DNA from: an uncultured Lentisphaeria bacterium
GTDB lineage: Bacteria; Fidelibacterota; UBA8477; JABMPR01
DNA: 64,000 nt
Direction: 5' to 3'
Assembly: GCA_964469505.1 (NCBI GenBank)
Contig: CAYXZO010000002.1
Location: 15,923-79,922 of the forward strand
The first letter of the stretch is position 1. Every line of letters starts with the position of its first letter. Below the pieces are notes generated by a model, which searched no databases, was not told where the DNA came from, and saw only the letters and a program-made list of their open reading frames with translations. Made by a program: the position numbers and the translations under genes. This document shows, in pieces, positions 1-42,668 of this stretch.

Positions 1-211
1 ATCTCGATCCCCGGTGCGGGCATCCGACCAGGCCAGCAATAGATATCCCGGTTCGGCAACTGCCACCGCTCGCTGCCATTCGATATGCACTCCCTGCCGC
101 ACCGGCACTCCGTTATGGGGCCAAACCAACGTTTCTCCAGCGTACAGCGCACTCATCCAGAGTGCCAAAATGAATATGATTCCTGTCAAAACCTTATCAC
201 TTCTCATCCAA

Positions 212-3200
212 TCAAATCCCTTCCAGTATCTGTTCCACCAGGAGCACCGCGTCCAGAATATCCAGGCGGTCATCTCCATTAAGGTCTGCTACGCTAAATT
301 GTTCCGGTTCAGGCGATTCTTCCAAAAGAATAAACTCTAACAAAAGCGTTACATCCGTAACGTTGATCCGATAGTCGAGGTTTACATCCCCTACCGGATG
401 GACTCCCTCCACTACCTGTAGTTGAATGGTGAAACTGGTATCCGGCACATTAACCGCGTTGGTCAACAATTTCAGGGGCATTGAGTAAGTACCGGTGGCC
501 AAACCGTCGGAATTCAGCGTAAAAGTGAAATAAGCCGTACTATCAGGGGGGATCAAGCCCGTCCATTGTCCCGCCCGGAACCATCGATATGGCCGCTGAA
601 TCCTGACGGCAGTTTGATCGTTGATCATGCTGGCACCGTTGTATACCACTGCAAACCCCCGGTCTCGAGTGGCGTTTTGCATACCTACCGTGGCACTGGT
701 TCGGGGTTCATCCAGGTGCTGATACTGGAACAAGATATTTCCATCGGCGGTCAACAAAACCTGGAAAGTATAGTGCTGAGAGGTTCCCCATTTAGGCATG
801 TTGATGAAAGAAACCACCGCCGAATCTTCCTGGTTGGTCCAGAAATAGATCGAACCCTGTGTGCCACTGTCCAGATTAAGATCATCCCACCAGGGGGCAA
901 TCATGGCAGGGGGCGCCAGAGGGTATGGCAAAGGTTGATTCCGCCAGGGCGCGTCTCTGGTCAAGAATTCTACAAAGCCGTTGCTACAGATATTCAATCG
1001 GCTGAACAAACTATCATAAAAGGGGAACGGGAATCCCAATTCAAAAGGCCCGATAGCAATATCATCGGGATCACCCGGGTAGCTCACGTAGTTGGCAGGC
1101 TCGGCAATGTCTATCCACTGGTAAACCGGTCCGCCCGGCTCCCAGCTTCCCTTCCAGGTATAGCCATAGGTGTCACCCTGTTCCGCGGGACGACGATGCA
1201 CGAATAATATTTCGTCGGGAGCTTCTTTGGTCCGCTGCTCAGGTAGCGGTCCCGGATCTAGCCGGGGAGCGTCCAAATCTGCCCTCTGGATAACGTACAC
1301 CAGGGGAGTCTGGCCTCCGTTGTGCAGCAACAGGGAATCCCGCGTTTCAGACCAGGGGTTAAGCTGATAAGTGAAAGAAGCCCCGGGCCACTCCAATCGA
1401 GGTGGCGCAGCCCGCACCCCTCTGCCAGTGGTGAATTTTATCGCTTTTCCGGCTCTTAGAGGCGACATGGCAGGCGATAGAATATGATTATAACTCAGTT
1501 GCACTCCCCGCCGACGCTGGGGCCCTTGAATTCCAATGGTAGCAAAATTCTGCCAGCTATCCGTGTCGGCGATACGGCGGTACTGAAAAAGAAAAGGAGT
1601 GTCGCCGGTAGGTGTTTCTTCATCCAGCAGAAACACAACCTGGAAGCTTAGAGTGTCCAGGGAAGCGGCGTTGTGAAGGCGTGACCACTCCACCACAAAG
1701 CGACTACTATCGGAACTTAGGTAAGCAAAAACTGCATCACCAGGCGCCCGCAAATCATCCCAAAAAGGAGCAATTAAAGCCGGGGGAGCCAGCAAAGATG
1801 GCAGACGCCGGTTGTGAAAGTCCACCCGCCCACCCTGACTGCCCATAGCCAGCCAGCCGTTGGAACAAATGGTGATTTCATGGTACGTCTGACCATAAAA
1901 CGTGATGGGAATCGGTATGGAATAGGCCGTTGCAGCATCCGCGCCCTCCTGGATATCAACTATGGGTAAAGGCACACCATGGCCCCCCAAGGCCGGATCT
2001 ACTTCCAGCCAGTGATACGCGGGACGTTCCGAATAACCCCAGTCATCATCATCGAAAGCCCGGTAGCCGTACTCATCGGGGGGCAAAGGAGCAAAGGGCA
2101 TCAACTGACCGCCCCGAATCTCCATGGGAAACACAAATTCATTGTTGCCCACAGCTGCAGTCAGAGATAGGGGCTCTTGGGGAAACAAACGGGTGCGGAT
2201 CGCAAAGGAAAGGGACGCCAACTCAATGTTGCTCCCTGGGGGGAGAGCTGGCACGGCCAGCGTTTCAGGCGTGCTCAACAAAGAATCGGTTTGGAAGCTC
2301 AGGAAGGTGGCCGGCAGAGTGTCGCCCCCAGTATTGTAAAGCTCGAATCGCAGCTTTAAAGAATCGCCTGGCTCAAAAGACCATTCCACGATTTGCGGGT
2401 GGGATAGTTCAGCCCGGGGGGCTTGAATCCCCAGGGGCAAATACCAGTTATAATCCAAACTCCCGGCTACGGCTCTCACAGCAATGGCGGTCGTGGTACC
2501 GTGGGGGATATCGGCGGCACAGCTCACCCGGGTAGCTTGTGGTAGTATTAGCAGTTGCCCCGGATTCAAGAAGGGAAAATTCAAAGTCACCGGATCAAAC
2601 TGTAAAAAGGTCGCTGAAGAAGAAAACTCGAGCTGCAAATCGTGCAGTGGAACCGAACCCACCTGGAGTCGCAGGTTGAGAAATTCCGCGTGCCCGGCCC
2701 GTAATGGTCGTGCCAGAAAAATGCTGTCCGCTTGTAACCAGTTGCTGGCATTCAGGACCGGCAAATCGATCTCGTACGGCAATAGGTTGTCACCGGTTAC
2801 AGTGAGGTGGACGCTGGATTCGGAATCTGGCCGGAACGCGACATAAGCCCAGCCGGAAGCATCGGTATAGGCTCCCTGGGCATTAGTGTCATTGTATAGA
2901 AAGACAAATGCCTTGGCCACCGGATTGCCCGTGGTGTCAGTAACCCGGATCGCCAGATTGCGTGTTCCGGGGGGTATGGGAGATTCGACTTCAACCTGCA
3001 GCCGACGGGGAGCCGCGGTCCATAAACTAAGTCCGGGATCCCCCAGAATGTTGTAGATGTGGAAATAAAACTCCGGTGTTTGACCGAAAGGGGCAAAAGC
3101 GTTGTCGTGAAACTCCCGCCAGAGTTCCAATTTCCCGGCCCAGGTGGCCGGTCCCAATACGTGGAGCCCTCCGTCTAGAATACCACCATAAAGCCCCATG

Positions 3201-4687
3201 TCGATAATGTTGTTGAACATGGTATGGGTATAGAGCTCACTGGGACCAAAAAAGGCCACGGCACCACGTGGTACTCCCGAAGTTCCCAGCCGTAACCAGG
3301 CTTCACCGAAACAGGGATCACCGGGAGCGGCATAATTTCCCCCACCGCAGACAATACTGGTAACCACAGGCAAACGCCAGCCGTTGTTCAAGGAGCTATA
3401 CAAATCCTCCGTACCATAATAAGGCCCGGACCAGCCGCCGTAGGAACCAAACCCCCGGTAATTGACGAAATTGACCCCGTTGTTTATGGCGGTATTTATG
3501 AGTGCAGTAGCCTGTTGGTAGGGATAATAGACCGTATCCACCTGGGTGAAGCCGTGCTGCAACAGCTCCTGCCGAACCCAATTTTTAACCTGTTGGATGC
3601 TGGGGGCATAGGAAGCGTTCCCCACCATCAGTGCTCGCCGGTACCAGGTCGAATCACTTACCCAGGGAGTGCTTTCATAATGCACGATTTTGTTGATGAC
3701 CGTGAGCAACTGAGCATAAGAATCCACTGAGAGCCGGCCGACATACATTTCGGGGAACACGTCATCGCCCTCTAACAGGGTATAAGGCAAGTCGGTGACT
3801 TGAGGATCACCCTCGGGGTTGTTGATGTAAAACCCCGGAATACCACGGTCTTCATCACCAATGAGCAATAAATACAACGGGCGCGGTTCGTGGGTAGTCC
3901 AGTAACTCTGAATAAAGTTCTTTATGCTGTTTCTACCGGATCCAGTCTCGGCAGTTGTGACCACGGTTACCTGGTGACCTTTGCGCCGTTTCCAGTCCAC
4001 CAATTCCTGCAAATAGGGTTCAAAACCGGGAGGAGTAATAATCAGATAAGGGGGTAATGTAGTTGAGAGAGAGTCCTCAAGCTCTGGTGTCAAGGTCCAC
4101 TGCGGACTACCTGTCACCAGGTGACTGGGAGTTATGGAAAACCGTAAATGTTTCTTCACGATCACCCGCTGGCGCTGATAATCCACCACCGCTATGGGTA
4201 AATCAATCACCAGGTAATACTTGCCCAACCAGGTGATTACTTGTGTCCGCGGCCGGCTTGAGGCCCGCCCTCTCAACCGCAGCCACTGAAATCGGTTTTC
4301 AGGGCGTTCGGATTGGCCATCAAAGCCAGCGGAGATTCCGGTTCTCAATTGCGGCCGATGCAATACTACCGAATCACCGGATCCCTCTTCCCAAACCACC
4401 TGAGGCGCTCGAGAATTGCGACAGGGGACGAAAAGCGTCAGTTGTGGTAACATAGGTCCGTCGGGTAGCTGCGTAAATGAGAACGGGCCCCCACCAGGAC
4501 CCGGCTCAAGGGAGAGCAGCGCGTGCCACACCAGGGTATCAGTCGTCCGATTAAAAGTAACTTCCACTTTCAGCGTATCATGGCGCGTTTTGAGTGATAG
4601 TGAAGGTTTAGGGATATTTTGTGGTAGGGCGGGAGGGGCCAGCAGTGCCGCCCCGATTAAGATCATTCCCCAGAGCGGGCCCCGCAT
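212..4687 (-). CDS. Secreted multidomain peptidase C25 family protein (gingipain/PorU-like catalytic domain) with a C-terminal dockerin-like repeat pair
   Basis: 1491-aa ORF with an N-terminal signal peptide (MRGPLWGMILIGAALLAPPALP). The central region carries C25 hallmarks: an NYRGFGS His segment and a VTSIVCGGGNYA Cys segment. An internal duplicated domain carries ICSNGW/F...FWDDL motifs. The C-terminus, DVNLDYRINVTDVTLLLEFIL...ADLNGDDRLDILDAVLLVEQIL, matches the dockerin type I consensus (DxNxDGxxNxxD...L). A 7-nt gap to the upstream gene suggests translational coupling. Confidence 0.75.
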   Translation of the reverse strand: MRGPLWGMILIGAALLAPPALPQNIPKPSLSLKTRHDTLKVEVTFNRTTDTLVWHALLSLEPGPGGGPFSFTQLPDGPMLPQLTLFVPCRNSRAPQVVWEEGSGDSVVLHRPQLRTGISAGFDGQSERPENRFQWLRLRGRASSRPRTQVITWLGKYYLVIDLPIAVVDYQRQRVIVKKHLRFSITPSHLVTGSPQWTLTPELEDSLSTTLPPYLIITPPGFEPYLQELVDWKRRKGHQVTVVTTAETGSGRNSIKNFIQSYWTTHEPRPLYLLLIGDEDRGIPGFYINNPEGDPQVTDLPYTLLEGDDVFPEMYVGRLSVDSYAQLLTVINKIVHYESTPWVSDSTWYRRALMVGNASYAPSIQQVKNWVRQELLQHGFTQVDTVYYPYQQATALINTAINNGVNFVNYRGFGSYGGWSGPYYGTEDLYSSLNNGWRLPVVTSIVCGGGNYAAPGDPCFGEAWLRLGTSGVPRGAVAFFGPSELYTHTMFNNIIDMGLYGGILDGGLHVLGPATWAGKLELWREFHDNAFAPFGQTPEFYFHIYNILGDPGLSLWTAAPRRLQVEVESPIPPGTRNLAIRVTDTTGNPVAKAFVFLYNDTNAQGAYTDASGWAYVAFRPDSESSVHLTVTGDNLLPYEIDLPVLNASNWLQADSIFLARPLRAGHAEFLNLRLQVGSVPLHDLQLEFSSSATFLQFDPVTLNFPFLNPGQLLILPQATRVSCAADIPHGTTTAIAVRAVAGSLDYNWYLPLGIQAPRAELSHPQIVEWSFEPGDSLKLRFELYNTGGDTLPATFLSFQTDSLLSTPETLAVPALPPGSNIELASLSFAIRTRLFPQEPLSLTAAVGNNEFVFPMEIRGGQLMPFAPLPPDEYGYRAFDDDDWGYSERPAYHWLEVDPALGGHGVPLPIVDIQEGADAATAYSIPIPITFYGQTYHEITICSNGWLAMGSQGGRVDFHNRRLPSLLAPPALIAPFWDDLRAPGDAVFAYLSSDSSRFVVEWSRLHNAASLDTLSFQVVFLLDEETPTGDTPFLFQYRRIADTDSWQNFATIGIQGPQRRRGVQLSYNHILSPAMSPLRAGKAIKFTTGRGVRAAPPRLEWPGASFTYQLNPWSETRDSLLLHNGGQTPLVYVIQRADLDAPRLDPGPLPEQRTKEAPDEILFVHRRPAEQGDTYGYTWKGSWEPGGPVYQWIDIAEPANYVSYPGDPDDIAIGPFELGFPFPFYDSLFSRLNICSNGFVEFLTRDAPWRNQPLPYPLAPPAMIAPWWDDLNLDSGTQGSIYFWTNQEDSAVVSFINMPKWGTSQHYTFQVLLTADGNILFQYQHLDEPRTSATVGMQNATRDRGFAVVYNGASMINDQTAVRIQRPYRWFRAGQWTGLIPPDSTAYFTFTLNSDGLATGTYSMPLKLLTNAVNVPDTSFTIQLQVVEGVHPVGDVNLDYRINVTDVTLLLEFILLEESPEPEQFSVADLNGDDRLDILDAVLLVEQILEGI

Positions 4688-4694
4688 GGGGAGA

Positions 4695-5789
4695 TCAGCG
4701 CTCCAGTAGCTGATAAATCTTCACGCCGCGCCGGGTGGCGGCAAAGTAGCGATCACCGGAAACCACCCCCCGGTAGATATAACCCGTTTCCAGATATCCA
4801 TCCAATCGGGGCTGAGCCGGGTCCGAAATATCCACTATGTACAATGAATTTTCTCCACAAGCCACCAGGGCAAATTGTTGCCATACTGCAATGTGTTTGG
4901 CCCACCCCCGTAAAGCTATGTTGCTGAGCCAGGTTAATTGATCTCCACTCACCGAGTAAACTTCCACCCCGGCCCAATTGTCGGCCACCAGTAGGAACTC
5001 ACCCGCAAACTCGGCTTCCAGAGCTTCTCCCGGAGTATCCGCCTGAGCCAATAACTCCAGGCTATCGGTATGAACACGGTATAATGCAATGCCCAGTTCG
5101 CCCATGGTAACCGCCAGCAGCGAATCCTTGAGAGCTAATCCAACTATGTGCCCTTGAACCAATTTAACCCCTTGAGGCTGCCAATAGTTGACTTGAAAGA
5201 CCGGTTCATATTTCAGGTCCAGCTGGATCTTCTTCAACCCGTCACCCCAGTCTCCATCGGCGACAAACACCGTCAGGCTACCTAGCGTGTCACCGCTGAT
5301 TACCGCCAGGTCTTTGCAATTGGCGTCAGAAAACTGGAGGGGATCCAGAGAATAGACCCACGGATCGGAATAGTAAGTCGAGTCAATAGTCGTCAAAGAA
5401 TTATTAAGGAACCGGTAATGCACCGTTTTGCGGTCCGCTACCATCAGTAATCTTTGGCTGGGAACAGTTAAGATGTACTGGGCCACATCACCGGTTAGCG
5501 GATCTTGGTAAGTTTCTTGATAGCTGCCCCCATTTCTGGACCAGATCTCAACTCCCGCCAGTGAGGCTGCCACATAAACTTGCTCTCCCACCACAGATAC
5601 GTCTCTGGCAAAGCCAACCGTGGAGAGACTATCTTCCAGAACCAGCAGCAAATTACCACTAGTACTCAAGCGACCGGGATTCAAGCAGCTATTCAGCAAC
5701 AGAACCAACAGCAGCAGTAATACATGCTTCCAATCAACATAAATCCATCTGATTTTATCTACGGGTGAGTAATCTTTTTTGTTCATCAT
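4695..5789 (-). CDS. LVIVD-repeat β-propeller protein, probably membrane-anchored or secreted
   Basis: Repeated hydrophobic β-strand motifs of the LVIVD type (YVAASLAG, LLMVADRK, VFVADGDWG, LLAVTMGE, FLLVADNWAG, LYIVDISD). An N-terminal hydrophobic segment (LLLLLVLLLNSC) is present. The likely start is ATG at 5789 (the ATGATG in the minus sequence), which overlaps the stop of the upstream gene in an ATGA arrangement. Confidence 0.6.
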   Translation of the reverse strand: MMNKKDYSPVDKIRWIYVDWKHVLLLLLVLLLNSCLNPGRLSTSGNLLLVLEDSLSTVGFARDVSVVGEQVYVAASLAGVEIWSRNGGSYQETYQDPLTGDVAQYILTVPSQRLLMVADRKTVHYRFLNNSLTTIDSTYYSDPWVYSLDPLQFSDANCKDLAVISGDTLGSLTVFVADGDWGDGLKKIQLDLKYEPVFQVNYWQPQGVKLVQGHIVGLALKDSLLAVTMGELGIALYRVHTDSLELLAQADTPGEALEAEFAGEFLLVADNWAGVEVYSVSGDQLTWLSNIALRGWAKHIAVWQQFALVACGENSLYIVDISDPAQPRLDGYLETGYIYRGVVSGDRYFAATRRGVKIYQLLER

Positions 5790-6853
5790 AGATACATATC
5801 CCAGATAAAGTTGTACTCCAAGCGAAGCCCTCCCCACCAGCGCGTGAAGGACTTAAGTTCTTCAGCTAAAGGGTAGGCCGAGAAAACCCGCCTTTGCCGC
5901 CGGCCCCAATAAGGTTCGAGACTCAAATTAGGCCCTAGGCTCCAACGGGTAAAAATCTCCAATCGCCATTCCTGCTGATAACGCCCCGCATGAATGGGAT
6001 CCACCGCGTTATCACTGCGGTAGCGACGTTCCTGCCAATATCCATTTATCGTCAACGGCCACACTACCCTGGGGGGCCTCAACGTAAAACTGAAATTGGT
6101 CTTAAGATACCAGTAACTGCGATCAATGTCGTCCAGATGATTAGCATTAAATGTTCTACCCAGGTGAGAAACCAAGCGCCACCGGCAGCTTCTCAGCTTG
6201 CCGTTAAACCCGGTGAATACTTCCGCACTCTGTAAATTGAAGCGACTAAAAACGGCATTATATACCTCCCGACCGACTTCAACCCCCCATTGTGACTCTA
6301 CGCGTCGCTCAAACGGGAAACGCAGTTCGATGCTTCCCGTTTCGCGATTATAGTAGCATTCCTCCCTGGCCCCGGTGGGCAACAAGGGGAATTGAGCCAA
6401 ATAACCTCTGGTAAAAAGGTCGGGCAACTGGTCGTAGCGCACCACTAATCGCCGGTGACGCCCAAACCATTGATCCAGGCGCACCGTAAACGTATGGTAA
6501 TTTCGCTGGGGAATTTGTTGAAAAAAATGCTGCACAGCGCTTACTCGCAGCCGGGTAGTGTGTCCCCGCCATAACCTCAGTCGATATGTCAAACTCAATG
6601 TCAGTTGTTGTTCCCAGCTGTCGCGATAGGTGACTCCCGGCAGGTAATCTGGTTCGTACCGCAGCCGTGCTTCCTCCGCAGGGGCCAAATTCAGTGGGTT
6701 GTGATGAAACGCCGAAGCCAGGCCAAAGGAAAACTCCAGGGGAGCCATGAATTTGCTCACAACCGAAGTCGCCCCCGACAGGTCCTGGCCAGGCCCTAAA
6801 CCTAAGCCAAGACTCAGGCAAAAGATCGCCCATTTATTTTTGTTTTTTGCCAC
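5786..6853 (-). CDS. Putative outer-membrane β-barrel protein (hypothetical)
   Basis: Signal-like N-terminus (KNKNKWAIFCLSLGLGLG). Alternating amphipathic strands run throughout, and the C-terminus ends in LEYNFIWDMYL, a terminal aromatic/hydrophobic pattern typical of OM barrels. The probable GTG start at 6853 has GGAG about 13 nt upstream; the longer ORF to 6886 is also possible. Confidence 0.5.
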   Translation of the reverse strand: MAKNKNKWAIFCLSLGLGLGPGQDLSGATSVVSKFMAPLEFSFGLASAFHHNPLNLAPAEEARLRYEPDYLPGVTYRDSWEQQLTLSLTYRLRLWRGHTTRLRVSAVQHFFQQIPQRNYHTFTVRLDQWFGRHRRLVVRYDQLPDLFTRGYLAQFPLLPTGAREECYYNRETGSIELRFPFERRVESQWGVEVGREVYNAVFSRFNLQSAEVFTGFNGKLRSCRWRLVSHLGRTFNANHLDDIDRSYWYLKTNFSFTLRPPRVVWPLTINGYWQERRYRSDNAVDPIHAGRYQQEWRLEIFTRWSLGPNLSLEPYWGRRQRRVFSAYPLAEELKSFTRWWGGLRLEYNFIWDMYL

Positions 6854-7727
6854 GGGACGAAGTCGTCTCCTCGAAAAAGCGCACAAAAACCTGCCGGTTG
6901 GAGTCCAGCAGAGAGATTTTTAAACGATGGGAACCGGATTTCAGTTGAAGGCGGCAGGTGCGCCATTTCCCGGGGACCAATTCTTCGTGTCCTTCCACCG
7001 TAGCTGTGTCGGAACTGGTGGTAGAGTAATGGTAAGTCCCCACCAATCGTCCATTGTCCCTTATCTGCAGGCGATAATCCTGAGCTCCATTCATCCAGTA
7101 TTCTAGCGCTAGGCGACTGAGCAATTCGATGGTTTTAGGGCCTTCCACTTCCAACAAAAGCGGTTTTTCGGGAGTGACTTTGAAATACGGCAGTCTCTTC
7201 TGACCAATAAGTATGTAGGCCGTATCAGCTGGCGCTAAAATCTGCGCTTTGAGTCGGCGCCGAGACTTTTTCCCTTGGCTGTGTTTGACAAGTCGGAACA
7301 ATAAGGGACCTGGGCTCTCTTTACGTCGCACTCGGATGGTATGTACTCCATCTCCAACCTGAAAGTAGTCCAGGGAAGCTCTGGTGTACCGATGATTGGG
7401 ATGCTGAGAGGATCGAATCCCTGAAAGTCGGGTCTGATGTTTGATCTGACGGGGGGGTGATTGATCAACAGTCACTTCAAAACTGTAAGACACCTCTGAA
7501 TCGCCTTTGCGGGACAATGCCACCGCCCGTGAGTACAGCTTCAGGGTAGCTGGTCCGTGAACTTGATAAACCAGCTCCTTGTTTTTCGTAAAATGGTAAA
7601 TCCGGCGCTTGCCTTGGATGAGCAGTATTTCCCGGGACTGGCGGGGTTCCTGAGGTTTAATCACCTGACCCCATAGAATCAGGGGAGCCAGAACCCATAA
7701 AAGCACCGCCTTATAAGTAGCCATCAA
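6834..7727 (-). CDS. Secreted basic (Lys/Arg-rich) hypothetical protein
   Basis: Signal peptide MMATYKAVLLWVLAPLILWGQ. Very high K/R content (KKSRRRLKAQ, RVRRKESPG, SSRGKKQK). It overlaps both neighbouring genes, which suggests operon coupling. Confidence 0.55.
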   Translation of the reverse strand: MMATYKAVLLWVLAPLILWGQVIKPQEPRQSREILLIQGKRRIYHFTKNKELVYQVHGPATLKLYSRAVALSRKGDSEVSYSFEVTVDQSPPRQIKHQTRLSGIRSSQHPNHRYTRASLDYFQVGDGVHTIRVRRKESPGPLLFRLVKHSQGKKSRRRLKAQILAPADTAYILIGQKRLPYFKVTPEKPLLLEVEGPKTIELLSRLALEYWMNGAQDYRLQIRDNGRLVGTYHYSTTSSDTATVEGHEELVPGKWRTCRLQLKSGSHRLKISLLDSNRQVFVRFFEETTSSRGKKQK

Positions 7728-8829
7728 TTTCCTCCGGCCGGTATGAAAGTCGGATGTGATAACGGCTGTAGAGAGCCACGCCCACTACCATGGTTAGGAT
7801 AAAAGCTAAACCAAGGCTCACCGCCGTCAGGTTATAACGCTCCTCAGCAAAAAGGGGGCCTACACCCGGTGGGGGCGAAGGCACCGCGGCATAGGGGTAG
7901 TTGAACTGCTTAAACAGTCTCTTAATGTTCAGCAAATGGATTACTGGAATTCCCCTGCTTCCCAGACGGTGAATCAATCCGCGTCCAGGTAATTCCTGGA
8001 GATCCCGCACTGTCAGCAATCCCGGTTTTAATAGACGGGCCGGTTGAGCACCTCCCAGAGCGGCAGCCCCCCCACCCACATTTACGTATGCCCGATAATT
8101 TTTAAGCGGGGTAAAAGATTCCAGTAATGCCAATCGCTTACGAATTATTTCATTCAAGGACTTGGCTTCTAAAAGAGGGACCTGGTTGCGCTTTGCCGCT
8201 TGTCTCAACAAACGGCGGCCTTTAGGACTTAGACGGCGGCCAATATCACCCCCACCCCCCAGGGTCGCCGCCCGGCTATGATAATCCACTACTCCACTGT
8301 CACGAAGAACCCGCTCCATATCCAGCCAGGTAAAATTCTCGTCATTAGCTCCCCACTGGGAAGCTCCCAGGGAGGTTACGATAATGGGCACCAGATCCAT
8401 TTCATAAGCCGCGCAATAAACCGCTAGGTTAGCTCCCGGCATGGAGCCGGTTAAAGTGACCACAATCGTGTCTCCAGCTTTTACCCCCGTTCGAAGGAGG
8501 AGATCCACCACCATCGCCGCCATGTTGGGGTCCAGCACGGAGATTTTCGCGTCTAAATCCCCCTGATCAGTGGTAATAAGGCTGTACTGGTGCCCAATTA
8601 GTCCTGTCTCATTGGGATCGTTGACCGGATCTACCATTACCGCCTGCTGCAAATGGTAATTCTTCAGGACCTCCAAAGCCCGGGCCATGCGCTTGACGGC
8701 CCTTATTTTTACTTCATAGCCAGGAGCTTTGCGTTCCACCCGTAAAGCACTAGTTCCATAAAAAACAATGGCGGTAACGATGGCCATGACCACCAGGACC
8801 TCGGTGCGCTGGAGGGCGGGTCTATACAA
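7711..8829 (-). CDS. Poly-γ-glutamate system accessory membrane protein (PgsW-like, TIGR04332-type), found with pgsBC where PgsA/CapA is absent
   Basis: 372-aa ORF lying immediately after pgsC, which it overlaps by 8 nt. It has an N-terminal TM helix (VLVVMAIVTAIVFY) and a C-terminal TM helix (VSLGLAFILTMVVGVALY). It carries none of the metallophosphatase motifs of PgsA/CapA. The family assignment is by size, topology and context only. Confidence 0.4.
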   Translation of the reverse strand: MYRPALQRTEVLVVMAIVTAIVFYGTSALRVERKAPGYEVKIRAVKRMARALEVLKNYHLQQAVMVDPVNDPNETGLIGHQYSLITTDQGDLDAKISVLDPNMAAMVVDLLLRTGVKAGDTIVVTLTGSMPGANLAVYCAAYEMDLVPIIVTSLGASQWGANDENFTWLDMERVLRDSGVVDYHSRAATLGGGGDIGRRLSPKGRRLLRQAAKRNQVPLLEAKSLNEIIRKRLALLESFTPLKNYRAYVNVGGGAAALGGAQPARLLKPGLLTVRDLQELPGRGLIHRLGSRGIPVIHLLNIKRLFKQFNYPYAAVPSPPPGVGPLFAEERYNLTAVSLGLAFILTMVVGVALYSRYHIRLSYRPEEIDGYL

Positions 8830-9271
8830 AAATCTTTCCTCCCTCCACTAACATCAGCACCATCTGGACGATAGCGGCGGCAATAAACAACATGCTCAAG
8901 GTACGCAATACGCCCTGGCGATCCATCCAGCTGGCAATTAAACCGGGGATTATATACCCGATGGAAGTTAGGTCTACTCCTGCCAGTGCTGGCATTTGTC
9001 CTAAATAGTTCCGGAAAACAAATCCGAAGATGAAACCCAGCAGCAGCGCTAACACCAGTCGCCGGCGCCCATAAATCAAAAGCCATCGGGCCAGAGACTT
9101 TATCACCAAATAGACTAGTAAAGCAGCCAGAAAAGTGGCCACTACTCGTGACGGGTAATGGAGATTGAGGGCAATATACCCCGGCACAACTATACCCCCG
9201 GCCGCTACTCCGTATCCCTCAGCAAAGGCCAGGGAGAGCACAATCCCTAATCCGACCGCCAGTTCAATCAT
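8822..9271 (-). CDS. pgsC: Poly-γ-glutamate biosynthesis protein PgsC/CapC
   Basis: 149-aa polytopic membrane protein. It aligns by eye along its whole length with Bacillus CapC: LSLAFAEGYGVAAGGIVVPGYIAL matches LSLIFAEKTGIVPAGLVVPGYLGL, and IGYIIPGLIASWMDRQG matches IGIIVPGLIANTIQKQG. Confidence 0.9.
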   Translation of the reverse strand: MIELAVGLGIVLSLAFAEGYGVAAGGIVVPGYIALNLHYPSRVVATFLAALLVYLVIKSLARWLLIYGRRRLVLALLLGFIFGFVFRNYLGQMPALAGVDLTSIGYIIPGLIASWMDRQGVLRTLSMLFIAAAIVQMVLMLVEGGKIFV

Positions 9272-10449
9272 GCTGCCTGGTGCTGCTCCAACTTTTCCAA
9301 TAAGGCAAAACCACGCCCCACGATATTTCCCATCCCAAACACTAACGTGTGGGGCGGGAGCTGACGGAGGGTTTTCACCACTTCCTCAGGCTGTGATTCC
9401 TCCGGGAAAAGATACAGGTTGGCGCCGAATTGCTTTTCCAATTCTTTCCTTAATTTCGCGGAGGCTTCTCCAATGTAAATCAATCGCTGCGGACGAATGG
9501 CGTCGGTTACCAGCTCCAGTAATTGCCTGGTGCGGGAGCGTCTATCAGTGCGCGTGTTGAGTAAAACCGCGATATGGTGAGGATCGAAATCGGGGCGGGA
9601 AGTAACCAGCTCCCAAATCTGAGCTGTAGATTGGGGATCATTAGCGGCGAAGGCATTCGCGAAGTACAAAGGTTCACCCGTAAGTGAAGTGAATCGCATG
9701 ATGCGTAGGGCACCCGGATCCGGAGCCATCTTCCGCATTCCTTCCAGGGCTTGCTCCGCGTCAACCCCTAAATGGGTACACACGGCCAGCGCCAAAGCCA
9801 CATTGTCCCGATGTTCCAAATAGGTGAAATCTCTTAAAACTTCTTCAGGCAATTCAGCGGGATCGACCAGGTGGAAAGAAGTTCCTCTTTGGTCTGCAAT
9901 GCGGCGGTATAAATCGGCGAAATGCTTTTCGGTAGTAAAAAAATGCCCCCGACGAGGGATGGTATTGGCAAGGCTGCGGGCGATCTGCTCCAGGGTGGGG
10001 CCCATTTCTTCCAGGTGGTCCGGCCGTACATTGGTAATAACCCCATGAGTGGCTCGGATCATTTGATGCTCCGTTATCCACTGGTAAGCAGGTTGAACCG
10101 CCATGCATTCCATGACCACCGCCTGGGGATAGAACCGTCCGAAATACCGCAGGAAACGCGTTTGCTCTCCAATTCCCGCTCCTCCAAGGCGCTGAATGGG
10201 ATGATCCTTTCCCAGGAGGTCAATTATTCGGGGTTGAGAGCCGGTGGTTTTAGCCCAGGTTGCCATACCTCCGGCTCTAAGTCCGGCGGCAATCAGTCTG
10301 GTTACACTTGATTTCCCACGAGTTCCATTCACATGAATTCGATAAGGTATCCGTCTTACGGCCCGATCTAGTTCTACCCGCTCCCAGCCCAGCCAGGTTA
10401 ACATCCCGCCCAGCAATACCCCCAGGCCAACTAACGGATCAGTCATGTT
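9268..10449 (-). CDS. pgsB: Poly-γ-glutamate synthetase PgsB/CapB (Mur-ligase family amide ligase)
   Basis: IHVNGTRGKSSVTRL (ATP-binding P-loop), VMECMAVQPAYQ and VITNVRPDHLEEMGPTLEQIA match B. subtilis PgsB (INGIRGKSTVTRL, VSECMAVNPDYQ, VNVLEDHMDVMGPTLDEIA). The start is ATG at 10449 (MTDPLVGLG...), preceded by GGGAAGGGAG. Confidence 0.9.
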   Translation of the reverse strand, partial: NMTDPLVGLGVLLGGMLTWLGWERVELDRAVRRIPYRIHVNGTRGKSSVTRLIAAGLRAGGMATWAKTTGSQPRIIDLLGKDHPIQRLGGAGIGEQTRFLRYFGRFYPQAVVMECMAVQPAYQWITEHQMIRATHGVITNVRPDHLEEMGPTLEQIARSLANTIPRRGHFFTTEKHFADLYRRIADQRGTSFHLVDPAELPEEVLRDFTYLEHRDNVALALAVCTHLGVDAEQALEGMRKMAPDPGALRIMRFTSLTGEPLYFANAFAANDPQSTAQIWELVTSRPDFDPHHIAVLLNTRTDRRSRTRQLLELVTDAIRPQRLIYIGEASAKLRKELEKQFGANLYLFPEESQPEEVVKTLRQLPPHTLVFGMGNIVGRGFALLEKLEQHQAA

Positions 10450-10562
10450 ATTTGCTCCCTTCCCGGCCTCCAGCGGTTTAGCTGCCGGAAATATACGCAC
10501 CCGAGTCAGGGAATTAAGTCGTAATCAAATGCCCCCTATGAAGTCATTAAAATGTATTAAAT

Positions 10563-11292: not shown

Positions 11293-12525
11293 ATGCATAA
11301 CTCCTTTTACGCACAATTTGATGAGGAAACTTACGGTACGCGCCACATCGCACCGGGTGAATACCGTACCCCCTTTGAAATCGATCGCGATCGCGTAATT
11401 CATTCCACCGCCTTTCGCCGGCTTCAGGGGAAAACTCAGGTTTACATCACCGGCCGCGGCGACCAATACCGCACCCGTCTTACCCACTCCATCGAAGTGG
11501 CCCAAATAGGTCGCTCAATGGTGAATTACCTTAACCGAGTACACCTGAAAGGCGGGTTGGAGTTCGCCATTGATGGAGCCCTGGTAGAGGCAGCATGTCT
11601 GGCCCACGATCTGGGTAATCCGCCCATGGGACATAAAGGAGAAGCTCGTCTTAACCAGCTTATGGCCCCCTGGGGAGGGTTTGAGGGTAATGCGCAAAGC
11701 CTACGTATTTTAACCAGGATCATTCGGGGTGAATCACACCGGGGCAAACGGGGTGGGTTGGCACCAACCCGTGCTTTTCTCGATGGGGTTCTAAAATACA
11801 AGGTACTCCGGACAGGTCCCCAGTCAACCCAAACCAAATTTTTATATCCTGACCAGCGGGAAATTCTGGAATGGGTTCACAACGGCCAGGAACTAACGGA
11901 GCGCAGCCTAGAATGTGCCATTATGGATCTGAGTGATGATATAGCCTACTGCACTTCGGATTTGTTCGATGGTTACAAACAAGGGCTGGTAACTCCTACA
12001 ACAGTAGCCGCTTTCTTTGAAAAACAGGGAAGCGCACCTGGGGTGGAATATCTTAGAGAAGCCCTCGAACAAGTCTTTCGCCGGGAAAAATCCTTGGAAA
12101 GAACCGTGGCAGGTTTGGTTGGATTTTTCATCACCTCCTGCTATCTGGAAGAAATTCACAATCCACCCTTGGTCAGTAATCGCTACCGTTACTGCCCTAA
12201 AATGCGGGAAGAAGCACGGGTAGTACTGGAAATGTTACGCAAAATGAATTTCCAGCTGATATATCACTCACCCCTGGTCAGAGAACAAGAACAGGAGGGG
12301 GTTGCGATTCTCGAAGCCGTGTTTAAAGCCTATCAAGAAGTGTACTATGAGCAGCGTCCCTGGCCCTCACTACTACCTCTCCCTCCCTACTTGAAGCAGG
12401 TTTTGGCAACTCCGAAACTGTCGGAACCGGAAGCCATGCGCAGAATTTGCGACCATATCGCCGGGATGACCGACAGTTACGTTCAATACCAATTTGCCGC
12501 TTTCAATCTCAAGCTCACTTCATGA
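11293..12525 (+). CDS. dgt: dGTP triphosphohydrolase-like HD-domain protein
   Basis: HSTAFRRLQGKTQV and RLTHSIEVAQIGRS motifs (HD motif), AHDLGNPPMGH, and the overall Dgt architecture. Confidence 0.85.
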   Translation: MHNSFYAQFDEETYGTRHIAPGEYRTPFEIDRDRVIHSTAFRRLQGKTQVYITGRGDQYRTRLTHSIEVAQIGRSMVNYLNRVHLKGGLEFAIDGALVEAACLAHDLGNPPMGHKGEARLNQLMAPWGGFEGNAQSLRILTRIIRGESHRGKRGGLAPTRAFLDGVLKYKVLRTGPQSTQTKFLYPDQREILEWVHNGQELTERSLECAIMDLSDDIAYCTSDLFDGYKQGLVTPTTVAAFFEKQGSAPGVEYLREALEQVFRREKSLERTVAGLVGFFITSCYLEEIHNPPLVSNRYRYCPKMREEARVVLEMLRKMNFQLIYHSPLVREQEQEGVAILEAVFKAYQEVYYEQRPWPSLLPLPPYLKQVLATPKLSEPEAMRRICDHIAGMTDSYVQYQFAAFNLKLTS

Positions 12526-15440
12526 CCGTTACCATCTCAAGAATCGCTAAAACTCCATTTACCAAGCTTTTCCAGAGCACTGCCATTCTTTGCGCAACAT
12601 TGCTAGGAACCTTGCCTACCTTCGGCAAAGAATTGCCGCTCAGGATTTACGATCCGGAAAAATATCTGGTTCAATCGCAGGTCAAATGCCTGTTGGAAAC
12701 CAGCAATCACCAGATCTGGGTCGGGACGCTGGGGGGAATCAACATTTTCACCGGAGGAAGCAACTACCAATTGACCACCAAAGATGGCCTGCCCAGTGGC
12801 TGGATAAACGCCCTACTTGAGTATCCCGACGGGGTGGTTTGGATCGGCACCAAAGGCGGACTGGCGAAGGTCACTGTTGACCAGCCCCAAGCGGTGCTGC
12901 TCATTCGAGGTAGCACTGCTCTGGAAATCCGCTCGCTGGGAGTATTTCAGGGAAAAGTTCTGGCGGGTACTTTTCAGAAGGGCATCTTTCAGGCAGAACA
13001 AGATAGTCTAGTTCCCTGGTCCCAAGCCGGTAACCTTTCTGGTTATCCTGTCTATGACCTCTGTTCAAATAAAGACACTTTATGGCTGGCTACCTACCAG
13101 GGGATTATTGAATATCATGATACAACGATCACGCGTTTGCTTCCTCAACAGATAGTTCTTTCCCTGGAATATTGGCGTAAAGCTATCTGGGCTGGCACCA
13201 CCGACGGCTTGTTCCGGATAGTCAGCGATAAGGCCCAAAAAGTGAAAGGGGAGATGATTATCCCCGACATGACCTCTGGTTCTGATAAACTGCTGATTAG
13301 CTCTTATTTCAGCGGCTTGCTGACGTTGGAAAATGGTCAATGGCATAACTACGACTCCCATAACGGCCTCCCGGAAACTTTTTATAAAGCCGTATTGATA
13401 GATCACCAGGGAAGCATATGGTTGGGAACCGATGGTATCGGTTTGATCCAGATTCTACCCTACCCCATCGTTAATTATGGGCCTACCTCAGGTTTAAGCA
13501 ACTCAATGGTAAACTACATCTCATTTACCCCGGAAAACTGGGTAGTGGTGAGTACTGATGAAGGCGTTTACATCAGCCATGACAAAGTTGATTTCAAACT
13601 CTTAGAGGAATCTTCTGGTTCCCGGGTATGGGCTTGCGTTCCTTACTATGGCGGCAGATTCCTGATGGGCACCGACGAAGGCACCTTCATCCTGTCAAAG
13701 TCCGGTAAAAAGGAACGAAAGATCTGGCCTTTCGCACTACTTGACGCCCTGACAGATGGTGATACCGTATGGGCCGCTACAGAACGAGGTCCCTGGATGG
13801 AAGTCAATGGAAAATGGCAACCAGTTTCTGGCGTTCCAGTTATTACCGGTGTCTATTGCCACGCCTTAACTCGGGGGCTGCGGGGCATCTGGTTTGCTAC
13901 CGCTGATGGTTTGTTGCTGATTCAGGGGAACGAAATCACCAGATGGAGGGACTCCACCAACCAAGCCCGCAACATGGTTTGGGATGTGGTGGCCGATGGG
14001 CAGGGCTACCTGTGGGTTGGAACCGACGGCGGCCTCATGAGAATAAGAGAGGACCTGCAGGGAGCCAGCTGGTTTACGGAAGCTGGCTCCGGATTTCCCT
14101 CGGATATTATCTATTCGCTGGTGTTGATCGGTCCCCGCGATTTATGGTGTGGGTCAGCCAAAGGGCTTTTACACCTGACCAAATTCCACTGGGAATTGTT
14201 TGATTTCAATGACGGACTACCGCAGAATGAATTCAACAGTAACGCTTTGGCTTATCACGACTCAAAACTATGGGCGGGTGGCATAAAAGGTCTCACCTGT
14301 ATTTCCAACCTGGCTGCGCTCAATCACCCGATTCCCCGCTGTTACCCCACCCGTTTTTATGAGAACGAAGAATCGGTGAGAACCTGGGCCTCCGAATATC
14401 CGTCCGATCCGCCTACTTTAAAAGTGGACCTGGGAACCGACGATTTCCTATGTCCCCGCCCGGTTTTCCGCTGGCGACTAAACCCGCAGGAATCCCAATG
14501 GATAGAACTTAAGAATGCTCACCAACTACAACTCTCAGCTCTCTCTCCCGGCCATTACCAGCCCCAGGTTCAGGCTGGAGATGGTCGTCGCTGGGGACCT
14601 ATCACTAATTTACCAGCTTTTGCCGTAGCACCGCCCTTGTGGCAACGTGGCTGGTTCCAAACCTTATTAGCCTTAATAGTAGCACTTTTGACCCTAGAAA
14701 TCTCCGCAGCCCTAACAGAAAACAGGCGACGACAAGAATTATTACGTCGGCAAAGTGAGCAGATTCAATTAGCCCGAATCTTTAATCAAGGCCTACTTCC
14801 CCTTGAAGAGAAATCTATCCCCGGGTTAAAAGTCTCCGTCGTAACTCATCCGCGGGAAGAATTCAGTGGCGATTTTTATGTACTGTTAAACCTCGGGAAT
14901 GACCGCTTTGCCCTTGTATTGGGGGACGTTGCCGGCCATGGGCTTGAGACGAGTTACCTCAATACCTTTGTAAAAATTGACCTGCAAGAAGTAAGGGACA
15001 AACGACATTCCTTGGATGAATGGTTGTCCCACTTGAATCGCAAATTATATCTGGTGCAAAAGCAGGGGCTAAACATCGCCCTGACCATTTTGGAGTATGA
15101 AACTTATACCAAGAAAAGTCGCATCTTTCTGGCTGGTAACCCAGCCCCCTGGTTATTGAACGCAAATGAAGAATTACAAACGCTGGATATTTCGGGCCAC
15201 CCTCCCCTGGGAGTTTTCCCGGAATTGCAACCCCATTGGACCCCTTTGCCGGAAGGGTGGCAAGCACTGCTCCTATTTACTGATGGATTTGAATTTCATC
15301 CATACGGCTCAGCTTTGTCCCAGCACATCCAGCATTTGCAGGCAGGAAATCTTGAAAAGCTGATAGCTCTAGAATCCACCACGGTCAATCCATCAGAACG
15401 GGACGACTGGACGGTAGTGCTCCTTTGCCATCTCAGCTAA
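12522..15440 (+). CDS. Membrane regulator with a periplasmic two-component-regulator-propeller/Y_Y_Y domain, one TM helix, and a cytoplasmic SpoIIE/PP2C-type phosphatase domain
   Basis: Repeated WxGTxxGL propeller blades. A TM helix WFQTLLALIVALLTLEISAAL is followed by a PP2C/SpoIIE signature (GDFYVLLNLGNDRFALVLGDVAGHGLETS). The start is ATG at 12522, in an ATGA overlap with the dgt stop. Confidence 0.8.
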   Translation: MTVTISRIAKTPFTKLFQSTAILCATLLGTLPTFGKELPLRIYDPEKYLVQSQVKCLLETSNHQIWVGTLGGINIFTGGSNYQLTTKDGLPSGWINALLEYPDGVVWIGTKGGLAKVTVDQPQAVLLIRGSTALEIRSLGVFQGKVLAGTFQKGIFQAEQDSLVPWSQAGNLSGYPVYDLCSNKDTLWLATYQGIIEYHDTTITRLLPQQIVLSLEYWRKAIWAGTTDGLFRIVSDKAQKVKGEMIIPDMTSGSDKLLISSYFSGLLTLENGQWHNYDSHNGLPETFYKAVLIDHQGSIWLGTDGIGLIQILPYPIVNYGPTSGLSNSMVNYISFTPENWVVVSTDEGVYISHDKVDFKLLEESSGSRVWACVPYYGGRFLMGTDEGTFILSKSGKKERKIWPFALLDALTDGDTVWAATERGPWMEVNGKWQPVSGVPVITGVYCHALTRGLRGIWFATADGLLLIQGNEITRWRDSTNQARNMVWDVVADGQGYLWVGTDGGLMRIREDLQGASWFTEAGSGFPSDIIYSLVLIGPRDLWCGSAKGLLHLTKFHWELFDFNDGLPQNEFNSNALAYHDSKLWAGGIKGLTCISNLAALNHPIPRCYPTRFYENEESVRTWASEYPSDPPTLKVDLGTDDFLCPRPVFRWRLNPQESQWIELKNAHQLQLSALSPGHYQPQVQAGDGRRWGPITNLPAFAVAPPLWQRGWFQTLLALIVALLTLEISAALTENRRRQELLRRQSEQIQLARIFNQGLLPLEEKSIPGLKVSVVTHPREEFSGDFYVLLNLGNDRFALVLGDVAGHGLETSYLNTFVKIDLQEVRDKRHSLDEWLSHLNRKLYLVQKQGLNIALTILEYETYTKKSRIFLAGNPAPWLLNANEELQTLDISGHPPLGVFPELQPHWTPLPEGWQALLLFTDGFEFHPYGSALSQHIQHLQAGNLEKLIALESTTVNPSERDDWTVVLLCHLS

Positions 15441-19698: not shown

Positions 19699-20376
19699 TC
19701 AGGAGTCGGAATCGGCTGCCGGCCGTGGTTGATGGCGAATCAGTTCTCCCTCCACCAGAAAAACGATATCCTCGGCAATATTAGTAGCTAGGTCGGCGAT
19801 ACGTTCCAGATAGCGCGAAACCGACAGTAGGTGCAGCCCCCGCTCCATCGTCGCGGGCTCAGCGGCCATTCGGGCTTGGAGGACCTTGAACATCTGTCGA
19901 TTCATATCATCCACTGCATCGTCTCTTTCGAGCACTTCCCGGGCCAGCTGAACATCTTGTTCAATCAGGGCGTTCAAGGCCATCCGGGCCATTTCCCGCA
20001 CGGCATCGGCCATCTCGGTCACATCTACTTCCAGGGTCAAAGGTTCATGGGTGGCCAAGTAAGCGGTGCGCTCGGCGATATTGACCGCCAGATCCCCCAT
20101 GCGTTCCAAATCGTTGTTTACTTTCAACGCGGTAATGATGAACCGCAGATCATTGGCCACGGGTTGATGCAAAGCCAGAATTTTCAGGCATTCCTCTTCC
20201 ACTTCCACTTCCCGCTGATCGATTATTGCGTCCCCTTCCATTACTAACCGGGCCAGCTCCGGCCGCCGTTCCTTTAGGGCGCGCAACGAACGATTTATAG
20301 CTTCTTCCACTAATGCCCCCACCCCCAACAATGCTTGCTTCAATTTGTTCAGATCACGGGTTAAATGAATGGGCAT
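19699..20376 (-). CDS. phoU: Phosphate signalling complex protein PhoU
   Basis: Two PhoU repeats; ERIGDHATNIAE-like motifs (ERIADLATNIAE, ERMGDLAVNIAE). Confidence 0.9.
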   Translation of the reverse strand: MPIHLTRDLNKLKQALLGVGALVEEAINRSLRALKERRPELARLVMEGDAIIDQREVEVEEECLKILALHQPVANDLRFIITALKVNNDLERMGDLAVNIAERTAYLATHEPLTLEVDVTEMADAVREMARMALNALIEQDVQLAREVLERDDAVDDMNRQMFKVLQARMAAEPATMERGLHLLSVSRYLERIADLATNIAEDIVFLVEGELIRHQPRPAADSDS

Positions 20377-20393
20377 TTAGGGCTCCTTTCTAT

Positions 20394-21173
20394 TTAGCCG
20401 AATCTACCTGTCAGGTAAGCTTCGGTCTGAGGTTCTTTGGGACGGGTAAAAAGCTCTTCAGTGGGACCGAACTCCACTAAGCGCCCCAGATAGAAGAAAG
20501 CAGTGTAATCCGATACCCGGGCGGCTTGTTGCATGTTGTGGGTTACGAAAACCACCGTGTAGTTGGTCTTTAAATTATCCACCAGCTCTTCGATTTTGCC
20601 AGTGGCCACCGGGTCCAGCGCCGAACACGGTTCGTCCATCAACAAAACCTCCGGTTCCACCGCCAGGGCCCGGGCGATGCATAACCGTTGCTGTTGACCG
20701 CCCGAGAGGGCCGTTCCGGGCTTTTTTAATTTATCCTTAACTTCGTCCCATAGAGCAGCGTCTCGCAGCGCCTGTTCCACCCGTCCCTCCAGCTCGCTCC
20801 GATTCAGCTTTTTGTACAGGCGCAACCCATAGGCAATGTTTTCAAAAATGCTCATTGGAAAAGGCGTAGGCTGCTGGAAAATCATACCAATCCGATGGCG
20901 GAGTTCCTGGGCCGAGACTGAAGGGTCCAAGATATTCTGGCCGTCCATGATGATTTCCCCTTCAGCCCGATGCCCTTTGTACAGCTCAAACATCCGATTA
21001 TAGGTTCTGATGTGAGTGGATTTACCACACCCCGAAGGTCCAATGAATGCCGTGACTTTGTTGCGGGCGATGTCCAGAGTATTGTCGAACAACACTTGCT
21101 GCGGACCGTAGAAAAAATTTAGATGCCGGACGGCGATTTTGCGTTCTTCAGGTGGCAAAAGGTATTCGCTCAT
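20394..21173 (-). CDS. pstB: Phosphate ABC transporter ATP-binding protein
   Basis: Walker [13 protein letters not shown] signature LSGGQQQRL, Walker B LLMDEP. It ends in the PstB-typical TGRFG. Confidence 0.95.
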
Positions 21174-22956: not shown

Positions 22957-23048
22957 GGCTCGACGGGAGAAAATACCTGGCTCTGCATCAGGCGCCTAGC
23001 CTTAACCAGCATTTTCTCTCACCCCCTACCAATTCAGGTCGTTGCCTT

Positions 23049-42658: not shown

Positions 42659-42668
42659 GGGTAGAAAG

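Follow-up and report, generated by a model that had tools for sequence, protein, structure and literature searches.

The gingipains RgpB and Kgp of Porphyromonas gingivalis (MEROPS C25; PDB 1cvr, 4ief, 4rbm) contain an N-terminal prodomain, a catalytic domain with a nucleophilic Cys and an immunoglobulin (Ig)-like domain behind it, and end in a C-terminal sorting domain (CTD) of the type IX secretion system (T9SS) or in haemagglutinin domains. PorU, the T9SS sortase, also belongs to the C25 family. In Ca. Stygibacter, a member of the Cloacimonadota, a dockerin-bearing C25 peptidase was reported together with a cohesin scaffoldin that itself carries a T9SS CTD (Williams et al. 2021, PMC8542988). 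According to the accessible part of that report, the same genomes encode the synthesis of poly-gamma-glutamate (PGA). PGA operons of Cloacimonadota are also described in the accessible part of a second source (10.1101/2025.11.11.687785). In these portions, neither source mentions a linkage between the PGA genes and the dockerin-bearing C25 proteins. Here we describe a C25-like protein of an uncultured marine Marinimicrobia-type bacterium, encoded by the open reading frame (ORF) 212-4687 on the minus strand of a 64,000-nucleotide stretch of contig CAYXZO010000002.1 (the window). An identical protein is present on JGI, NCBI and Logan contigs.

We tentatively read the ORF product as an exported, non-covalently tethered and atypical C25-fold accessory of a PGA envelope system, with a probability of about 0.4. 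The protein would be exported by the Sec pathway and then work outside the cytoplasmic membrane beside the PGA envelope layer, where it may take part in the processing, remodelling or attachment of PGA or of proteins associated with it. The active site proposed for this is atypical: the nucleophile Cys447 is kept, the catalytic His is lost, and two residues ahead of it an invariant Arg411 has been gained. A partner encoded elsewhere would bind the Ca-binding dockerin and so tether the protein without a covalent bond; the dockerin lies at the place where sister proteins of KSB1 and Cloacimonadota have a T9SS sorting domain that would anchor them covalently to the surface. Since the gene is a conserved member of the PGA cluster, its product is probably there for this polymer of the cell surface and not for a cellulosome.

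The C25 domain, recognized in an earlier note on this sequence, is well supported. Pfam Peptidase_C25 (PF01364) spans residues 214-555 (E 7.7e-61; 206.8 bits, cut-off 23). Among PDB sequences, phmmer finds gingipain R (1cvr, 4ief) at E ~1e-30 (RgpB 1.5e-30) and Kgp at E ~5e-24, and a profile search reaches RgpB at E 2.5e-47. The catalytic-domain fold is shared with RgpB and Kgp, as are the GDxD, GR, YE and GDP motifs and the nucleophilic Cys. The ORF, the domain and its key positions are as follows.

212..4687, minus strand: whole ORF, a C25-like protein with two NIDO-like domains and a dockerin; 1,491 residues, ATG start, stop at 212-214
3020..4075, minus strand: C25 (gingipain-fold) domain, residues 205-556, from Pfam and PDB sequence and profile matches
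3347-3349, minus strand: Cys447, nucleophile position, from alignment to RgpB Cys244
3449-3451, minus strand: Phe413, position of the catalytic His, from alignment to RgpB His211
3455-3457, minus strand: invariant Arg411, from homolog alignments

The catalytic dyad differs from that of the gingipains. In both single-sequence and profile alignments, the catalytic His of RgpB (His211, in Y-T-G-H-G) and of Kgp aligns to Phe413 (in N-Y-R-G-F-G). This register is not in doubt, because the flanking N-Y, G, G and W residues are common to both. The column contains no His in 118 database homologs, in 82 locus-derived sequences representing every clade, or in 6 further copies from PGA loci; it is occupied by F, L, Y, W or another residue. 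Nor does any column of the C25 domain hold an invariant His across the 82 locus-derived sequences. The earlier note's label of a peptidase is therefore unsafe. Cys447 and Arg411 are 100% conserved in the same 82 sequences, which span all clades, and so are Thr487 and Asn492-Asn493. Cys447 stands in an invariant CG.G context. Across phyla, conservation is highest in the C25 domain and there in the stretch around Cys447. A role of His488 as general base in place of the missing His was considered. It is present in all of 40 Marinimicrobia orthologs, but other clades have K, S, R or Q there, and its equivalence to RgpB Trp284 hinges on gap placement, so the assignment is not firm.

The substrate pocket appears to be altered as well. 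The positions of RgpB Glu152 and Asp163 are changed or deleted in the alignment, and Arg411 aligns to RgpB Thr209. In RgpB, Thr209 presumably lines the S1 pocket, of which Asp163 presumably forms the floor. An Arg-bearing pocket in place of an acidic one would fit a carboxylate-bearing substrate, for example glutamyl residues. Judged from its sequence, the ORF product lacks one defining feature of an active C25 peptidase, yet retains features that speak against simple decay.

The second line of evidence is the genomic context. ORF 212-4687 is the seventh gene in a minus-strand run, in which genes overlap or stand 7 nt apart.

9268..10500, minus strand: PgsB, ligase subunit of PGA synthase and first gene of the operon (TIGR04012, 415.3 bits; threshold 222.7)
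8822..9271, minus strand: PgsC (TIGR04011, 128.9 bits; threshold 96.45; also a Caps_synth_CapC match)
7711..8829, minus strand: TIGR04332 "poly-gamma-glutamate system protein" (317.6 bits; threshold 100)
6834..7727, minus strand: unkB, exported, with two jelly-roll domains resembling carbohydrate-binding modules (CBM) or malectin, from an AlphaFold2 model and sequence
5786..6886, minus strand: unkC, exported, beta-rich and basic, from sequence
4695..5837, minus strand: LVIVD-repeat beta-propeller, from a domain match; orthologs have a lipoprotein lipobox (e.g. LTAC)
1..205, minus strand: beginning of the gene that follows (MRSDKVLTG...), truncated at the window edge and completed from longer contigs

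The thresholds for PgsB, PgsC and TIGR04332 are NCBIfam equivalog or subfamily cut-offs. By these matches, the three genes are predicted to encode a genuine PGA synthase, of a type that has been reported from Gram-negatives. The cassette (7711-10500, minus strand) is complete but without a CapA/PgsA homolog.

This arrangement is conserved. We searched 80 GTDB loci, fetched by the C25 profile, for the neighbouring genes by tblastn. About 20 Marinimicrobia loci are colinear over nine genes, in the order PgsB-PgsC-TIGR04332-unkB-unkC-LVIVD-C25-propeller-M14. In about 10 rearranged loci, mostly from Cloacimonadota but also from otherwise-labelled metagenome-assembled genomes (MAGs), the C25 gene neighbours PgsB, in most of them together with PgsC-TIGR04332; these loci usually keep the propeller and/or the M14 gene with C25. 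As a control for ascertainment, loci were sampled independently through the TIGR04332 protein instead of C25. C25 genes are directly adjacent in 4/4 such loci: one from KSB1, one from an unnamed taxon and two from additional Marinimicrobia. A neighbour-joining tree of the C25 and Ig region scatters PGA-linked copies across the dockerin-bearing Marinimicrobia clade and places the PGA-linked ones of Cloacimonadota in a distant clade of their own. This distribution indicates that the linkage between PGA and C25 genes is old. Old linkages that survive rearrangement usually mark genes with a functional tie.

The third line of evidence concerns the C-terminus. The ORF product is a modular protein of ~160 kDa, which contains, in order, a probable signal peptide, a putative gingipain-type prodomain, the C25 fold, an Ig-like domain, a beta-sandwich spacer, two successive units of a NIDO-like and an Ig domain, and a type-I dockerin. 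While the N-terminal half appears to follow RgpB and Kgp, ~850 extra C-terminal residues (NIDO-like, Ig, dockerin) have no counterpart there, and the dockerin replaces the T9SS CTD or haemagglutinin domains.

4622..4687, minus strand: Sec signal peptide MRGPLWGMILIGAALLAPPALP, residues 1-22, read by eye; probable
4088..4600, minus strand: prodomain-like region, residues ~30-200, from a family profile match to 5mun_A; weak assignment
2753..3010, minus strand: Ig-like domain behind C25 as in gingipains, residues 560-645, aligning with the C-terminal Ig-like domains of RgpB and Kgp
2108..2740, minus strand: poorly conserved, beta-rich spacer, residues 650-860, from the conservation profile and CARDB-like matches in relatives
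1430..2086, minus strand: NIDO-like repeat A, residues 868-1086, from hhalign against repeat B and AlphaFold2
1268..1405, minus strand: Ig-like (ASH/PapD/HYDIN-type) sandwich A, residues ~1095-1140, followed by a low-confidence linker, from AlphaFold2 and a match to 6fvi
596..1183, minus strand: NIDO-like repeat B, residues 1169-1364, from Pfam NIDO PF06119, hhalign and AlphaFold2
413..580, minus strand: Ig-like sandwich B, residues 1370-1425, from AlphaFold2
215..397, minus strand: type-I dockerin, residues 1431-1491, with two Ca-binding loop-helix repeats, from Pfam, profile search and AlphaFold2

The C-terminal dockerin-type repeats described in the earlier note are borne out. Dockerin_1 (PF00404) matches residues 1433-1488 with 34.0 bits (cut-off 22.9; E 3.3e-8) over model positions 2-57 of 57. 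The family profile finds the solved type-I dockerins 2ccl_B, 1ohz_B and 4fl4_A at E 4e-5 to 6e-5, and solved dockerins overall at E 4e-5 to 4e-3. Each of the two ~22-residue segments contains a canonical 12-residue Ca loop, DVNLDYRINVTD and DLNGDDRLDILD, taken as an EF-hand-like loop with D/N at positions 1, 3, 5, 9 and 12 that is followed by a helix. In 40 orthologs, D1434, D1438, D1445 and D1479 are invariant, and N1436, N1442, D1468 and D1472 are conserved in >=90%. The AlphaFold2 model places the dockerin helices at residues 1443-1453, 1461-1467 and 1477-1490 with a predicted local distance difference test (pLDDT) score of >90.

About 80 database clusters share the full length (~1,500 residues, 38-44% identity) and the C25, NIDO and dockerin architecture; their named members are Candidatus Marinimicrobia or "FCB group" (Fibrobacterota-Chlorobiota-Bacteroidota) MAGs. 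The dockerin is kept in all Marinimicrobia members of the family. Distant relatives from Cloacimonadota, KSB1, Zixibacteria and others lack a dockerin and end in a T9SS C-terminal sorting domain. This includes the PGA-linked Cloacimonadota C25 proteins that we examined, and at the orthologous position of the locus, the C25 proteins of KSB1 and of locus L092, some with NIDO, end in Por_Secre_tail. No match to the Por_Secre_tail or TIGR04183 sorting domain was found in the ORF product. The dockerin thus occupies the place of the T9SS sorting domain of its sister proteins. The earlier note had registered neither these proteins nor the missing His or the PGA-synthase context.

Comparison of the two kinds of loci also bears on the binding partner, for which the earlier note suggested the LVIVD propeller or the outer-membrane protein encoded just upstream. 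Loci without a dockerin retain homologs of genes from this upstream group, namely unkB and LVIVD in the KSB1 locus L091, and unkB and unkC in L092. The upstream genes do not track the dockerin, which argues against unkB, unkC and LVIVD as its partners, and the suggested tethering is unsupported.

How well these observations suit a less specific role has to be considered. The protein could be a generic extracellular degrader of proteins, docked on a cohesin scaffoldin encoded elsewhere (a "proteolysome"), with the released peptides feeding the cell and the PGA adjacency reflecting co-regulation only. The strong C25 profile match, the putative gingipain-like prodomain and Ig domain, and the canonical dockerin would all suit such a protein. 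The same model was proposed, in the accessible part of the report, for the C25 and S8 peptidases with dockerins in Ca. Stygibacter, together with a cohesin scaffoldin of 3,755 residues (PMC8542988). Ca. Stygibacter belongs to the same FCB superphylum, and its C25 protein likewise combines a signal peptide, C25 and a C-terminal dockerin. The C25 proteins of Marinimicrobia and Cloacimonadota are, moreover, routinely counted as extracellular peptidases (PMC8359207). The family has several copies per GTDB genome, three each in BH26, BS150m-G71 and bin.62, some of them outside PGA loci. Across ~1.3 Mb of related loci, the dockerin hidden Markov model (HMM) finds one carrier outside the C25 family, an FG-GAP-repeat protein of 549 residues (L031:8534-10180) directly upstream of a C25/NIDO/dockerin paralog; this second dockerin-bearing protein also favours a degradative complex.

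The cohesin that this model calls for did not appear in the loci searched. The earlier note had found no cohesin in the window, and this holds: the Pfam Cohesin model gives no match at E<=1-5 in the operon neighbours and the other unknown or secreted window ORFs, the housekeeping ORFs recognized by eye not being part of the Pfam scan. An HMM of the type-I (C. thermocellum-type) cohesin finds nothing in ORFs of >=100 residues in the window or in ~90 related loci. For the Marinimicrobia family, unlike Ca. Stygibacter, no scaffoldin or cohesin was thus found in these loci. A dockerin partner encoded elsewhere in the genome is plausible, because a cohesin scaffoldin with a T9SS CTD is described in Cloacimonadota, and this is the most reasonable statement. 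With its two ~140-residue sandwich repeats, unkB was considered as a cohesin and rejected, since its fold is of the CBM22/CBM35/malectin-like type. The generic model also leaves the absence of the canonical catalytic His from all homologs unaccounted for, and the pgsBC linkage outlasts gene-order rearrangement in at least three phyla, which goes beyond accidental co-regulation. We regard general protein degradation as rather unlikely.

The non-catalytic domains lead to a further alternative. The earlier note described two segments of about 100 residues that share a sequence motif. The duplication is real and the motifs lie where it placed them (ICSNGW at residue ~941 and ICSNGF at ~1234; APFWDDL at 973-979 and APWWDDL at 1264-1270), but the unit is larger, with ~200 residues (868-1086 and 1169-1364) followed in each copy by an Ig-like sandwich. 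BLASTP aligns residues 861-1130 with 1131-1400 over 243 columns at 28% identity (E 2e-13), and hhalign of repeat A against repeat B, with blocks from 40 orthologs, gives 99.8% probability over 192 columns (E 9.5e-28). The AlphaFold2 model of residues 860-1491, built from 75 sequences (pLDDT 89.4; predicted template modelling score 0.74), resolves two successive units of an all-beta NIDO-like domain and an Ig-like sandwich, and then the three-helix dockerin. In repeat A, the all-beta domain has a pLDDT mostly >90.

Pfam NIDO (PF06119) matches copy B at residues 1231-1290 (32.5 bits, cut-off 25), which covers only model positions 3-57 of 186, and an ortholog at locus L018 matches positions 77-179 (47.9 bits). 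Sandwich A has an ASH/PapD-like structural match in 6fvi (probability 0.98), and the L020 ortholog has a weak HYDIN_VesB_CFA65-like_Ig match (17.5 bits, cut-off 25.5). Foldseek of the 632-residue multi-domain C-terminal model against the PDB returned only Ig/ASH matches and meaningless global ones (template modelling score < 0.1), which leaves the NIDO-like fold unplaced. The above-threshold matches of the protein and its ortholog, which together cover NIDO positions 3-57 and 77-179, and the SNG...APFWDD motifs link these domains to NIDO of nidogen, alpha-tectorin and MUC4. Unlike those, the domains described here are bacterial, form a tandem duplicate with Ig spacers and are fused to a protease fold. 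We know of no organism in which the function of the NIDO domain has been established.

With this long C-terminal part, made of domains known from extracellular-matrix proteins (NIDO, ASH/Ig), the protein could be a pseudo-peptidase: a catalytically dead C25 fold that, together with the NIDO-like and Ig domains, has a binding or structural role in the envelope as an adhesin or matrix protein. This is suggested by the residue that throughout takes the place of the dyad His of clan CD (Phe, Leu, Tyr or Trp), by the loss or change of the Glu152 and Asp163 positions and by the lack of any invariant His in the domain. Against it stands the Cys nucleophile, which is kept in all 82 sequences, in an invariant context and within the most conserved part of the protein. 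A prodomain, typical of latent enzymes, also seems to be retained. The family profile weakly matches the Kgp chain 5mun_A over residues 69-184 (E 1.1e-3). We take PDB 5mun to be the Kgp prodomain. The N-terminal region (residues ~30-200) is basic, with an isoelectric point (pI) of 10.4. PF08126 Propeptide_C25 is precomputed for several homologs, and the Propeptide_C25 and Peptidase_C25_C models pass in relatives only. On balance, a purely structural role is unlikely.

A PorU-like sortase or transpeptidase, which would form a Cys acyl intermediate and transfer T9SS cargo or, as CapD does in Bacillus anthracis, PGA to a surface acceptor, is improbable: the C25 fold, the common superphylum, the T9SS cargo encoded by neighbouring genes, the lack of a CapD/GGT or PgdS homolog among the conserved PGA-locus genes and weak matches to the NCBIfam PorU models would agree with it, but these matches (NF033707 T9SS_sortase, 47.8 bits against 420; NF052324 PorU2, 34.1 against 450) lie below cut-off, for the first about ten-fold, while the product has no CTD, another architecture and no catalytic His.

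Several points weigh against an accessory role in the PGA system. The link to PGA is drawn from gene neighbourhood only. Marinimicrobia genomes have ~3 paralogs of the same architecture, several of them far from PGA genes (L001, L009, L011, L014 and others), so that the chemistry of the family is not necessarily PGA-specific. Without the catalytic His, the C25 domain may be no enzyme at all, and the equivalence of Arg411 to the S1 wall at RgpB Thr209 comes from sequence alignment and the RgpB structure rather than from a model of the ORF product. No cohesin was found in the scanned ORFs of the window or of the ~90 related loci, and a protein without a T9SS CTD would need another route across the outer membrane. 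With a pI of 4.2-5.0, the NIDO-like domains and the C25 domain are acidic, which disfavours simple electrostatic binding of a polyanion; the NIDO-like domains were rejected as electrostatic PGA binders for this reason.

The role in the PGA envelope system can be phrased more boldly. The His-less C25 domain may be the missing PGA-handling enzyme of diderm (FCB) producers, a Cys-dependent gamma-glutamyl endopeptidase or transpeptidase in which Arg411 would read the glutamyl carboxylates, held by a dockerin in Marinimicrobia. We consider this version doubtful. Enzymes that act on PGA are diverse: CapD is a gamma-glutamyl transpeptidase, PgdS an NlpC/P60 cysteine endopeptidase, and phage PghP an M14-like zinc hydrolase. 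The analogy to these is functional only. They are encoded beside pgsBC or act on its product, and the locus described here has both Cys-type and M14-type proteins. The C25 domain, in turn, has no sequence or fold relationship to CapD or PgdS, and its activity on PGA is hypothetical. If the proposal is true, the domain would be a functional analogue of CapD or PgdS on a gingipain scaffold, and in Marinimicrobia the dockerin would have replaced the T9SS sorting domain in evolution.

The predicted signal peptide contains no lipobox Cys. The Ig-like domain behind C25 (residues 560-645) has weak Big_1 and CarboxypepD_reg matches, with Peptidase_C25_C seen in relatives, and the spacer probably consists of two sandwich domains. 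Of the upstream genes, unkB encodes a very basic protein (pI 10.3) with two internal repeats, an invariant H-P-N-H motif and conserved His and Cys residues. Its AlphaFold2 model (pLDDT 91.7) is a tandem jelly roll of the CBM22/CBM35/malectin-like type. No Pfam or NCBIfam match was found, and a profile search against PDB sequences was also empty. An exhaustive representative search found 341 representatives of the unkB family in a 50%-clustered library; a word-indexed homolog search found unkB alone. As a basic protein with tandem CBM-like domains, unkB has the properties expected of a polyanion binder and is a candidate periplasmic binder of the PGA chain. unkC is a candidate outer-membrane barrel.

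On the other side of the C25 gene, longer contigs with identical genes extend beyond the window edge. The gene at 1..205 encodes a beta-propeller-repeat protein of 1,005 residues with a T9SS sorting domain and is followed by a T9SS M14 carboxypeptidase gene; both pass TIGR04183 (37.6 and 35.7 bits, cut-off 23). Two more C25 genes lie on the contig of the window past its left edge (L095:19818-24476), one for a C25-like protein of 1,027 residues with a T9SS CTD and one for a protein of 1,392 residues with Propeptide_C25 and FlgD_ig. Counting these, the cluster has three C25-like proteins, which end in two different ways at the C-terminus. A scan for promoters and terminators gave counts not above those of shuffled sequences, and operon boundaries were not defined by it.

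In another Marinimicrobia lineage (L093:1147-8370 and L094:1611-8346), a dockerin-bearing C25 gene for ~1,190 residues lies directly upstream of pgsB. Just before it are genes of the type II secretion system or type-IV pilus (a GspE-like ATPase and a GspF-like platform protein), with a prepilin peptidase called in L093 only. These genes are a possible outer-membrane export route for dockerin proteins without a CTD.

Elsewhere in the window, a Reg_prop beta-propeller and SpoIIE phosphatase sensor protein of 997 residues (12447-15440, plus strand) is divergent from the PGA operon region. A phosphate-starvation block (19699-27931, minus strand), recognized by reading translations by eye, contains PhoU, PstB, PstA, PstC, a protein of 345 residues, PstS and a PhoR/PhoB-like pair; the 345-residue ORF has no Pfam match. 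Three consecutive exported proteins at 39640-44048 (plus strand), with a weak match to an outer-membrane beta-barrel, DUF6175 and an LPP20-type lipoprotein, look like an envelope module. In a protein of 783 residues (59649-62000, minus strand), an M23 peptidase domain at the N-terminus is followed by a long C-terminal part without assignment.

None of the modules of the ORF product is new in itself, and C25 proteins with a dockerin were already reported from a sister phylum. In the accessible part of the Ca. Stygibacter report (PMC8542988), a NIDO-like duplication, a missing His and a physical pgsBC linkage are not mentioned. The literature that we searched held no paper combining dockerin with a Marinimicrobia name, and no description of the tandem NIDO-like duplication, the clade-wide loss of His with Cys and Arg kept, the cross-phylum membership in the PGA cluster, or the substitution of a dockerin for the CTD. 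PGA synthesis was described there for Cloacimonadota, with no mention for Marinimicrobia.

To our knowledge, the export, trimming and anchoring of PGA in bacteria with two membranes are poorly understood. The cluster offers a parts list for PGA handling: a basic tandem-CBM protein, a putative barrel, a propeller lipoprotein, C25-like proteins and an M14 enzyme. The swap of dockerin and CTD at an orthologous position is a natural experiment on two modes of surface fixation in Gram-negatives. Marinimicrobia and Cloacimonadota are abundant and almost uncultured degraders of oxygen-poor oceans and anaerobic digesters. In metabolic reconstructions, "C25/gingipain" genes are routinely scored as extracellular proteases (e.g. 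PMC8359207). If the bolder proposal is true, the "gingipain-like extracellular peptidases" of Marinimicrobia, Cloacimonadota and KSB1 would not be general proteases. Should the catalytic His be absent from the entire clade, and the clade be tied genetically to PGA synthesis, such inferences of extracellular proteolysis would need to be revisited.

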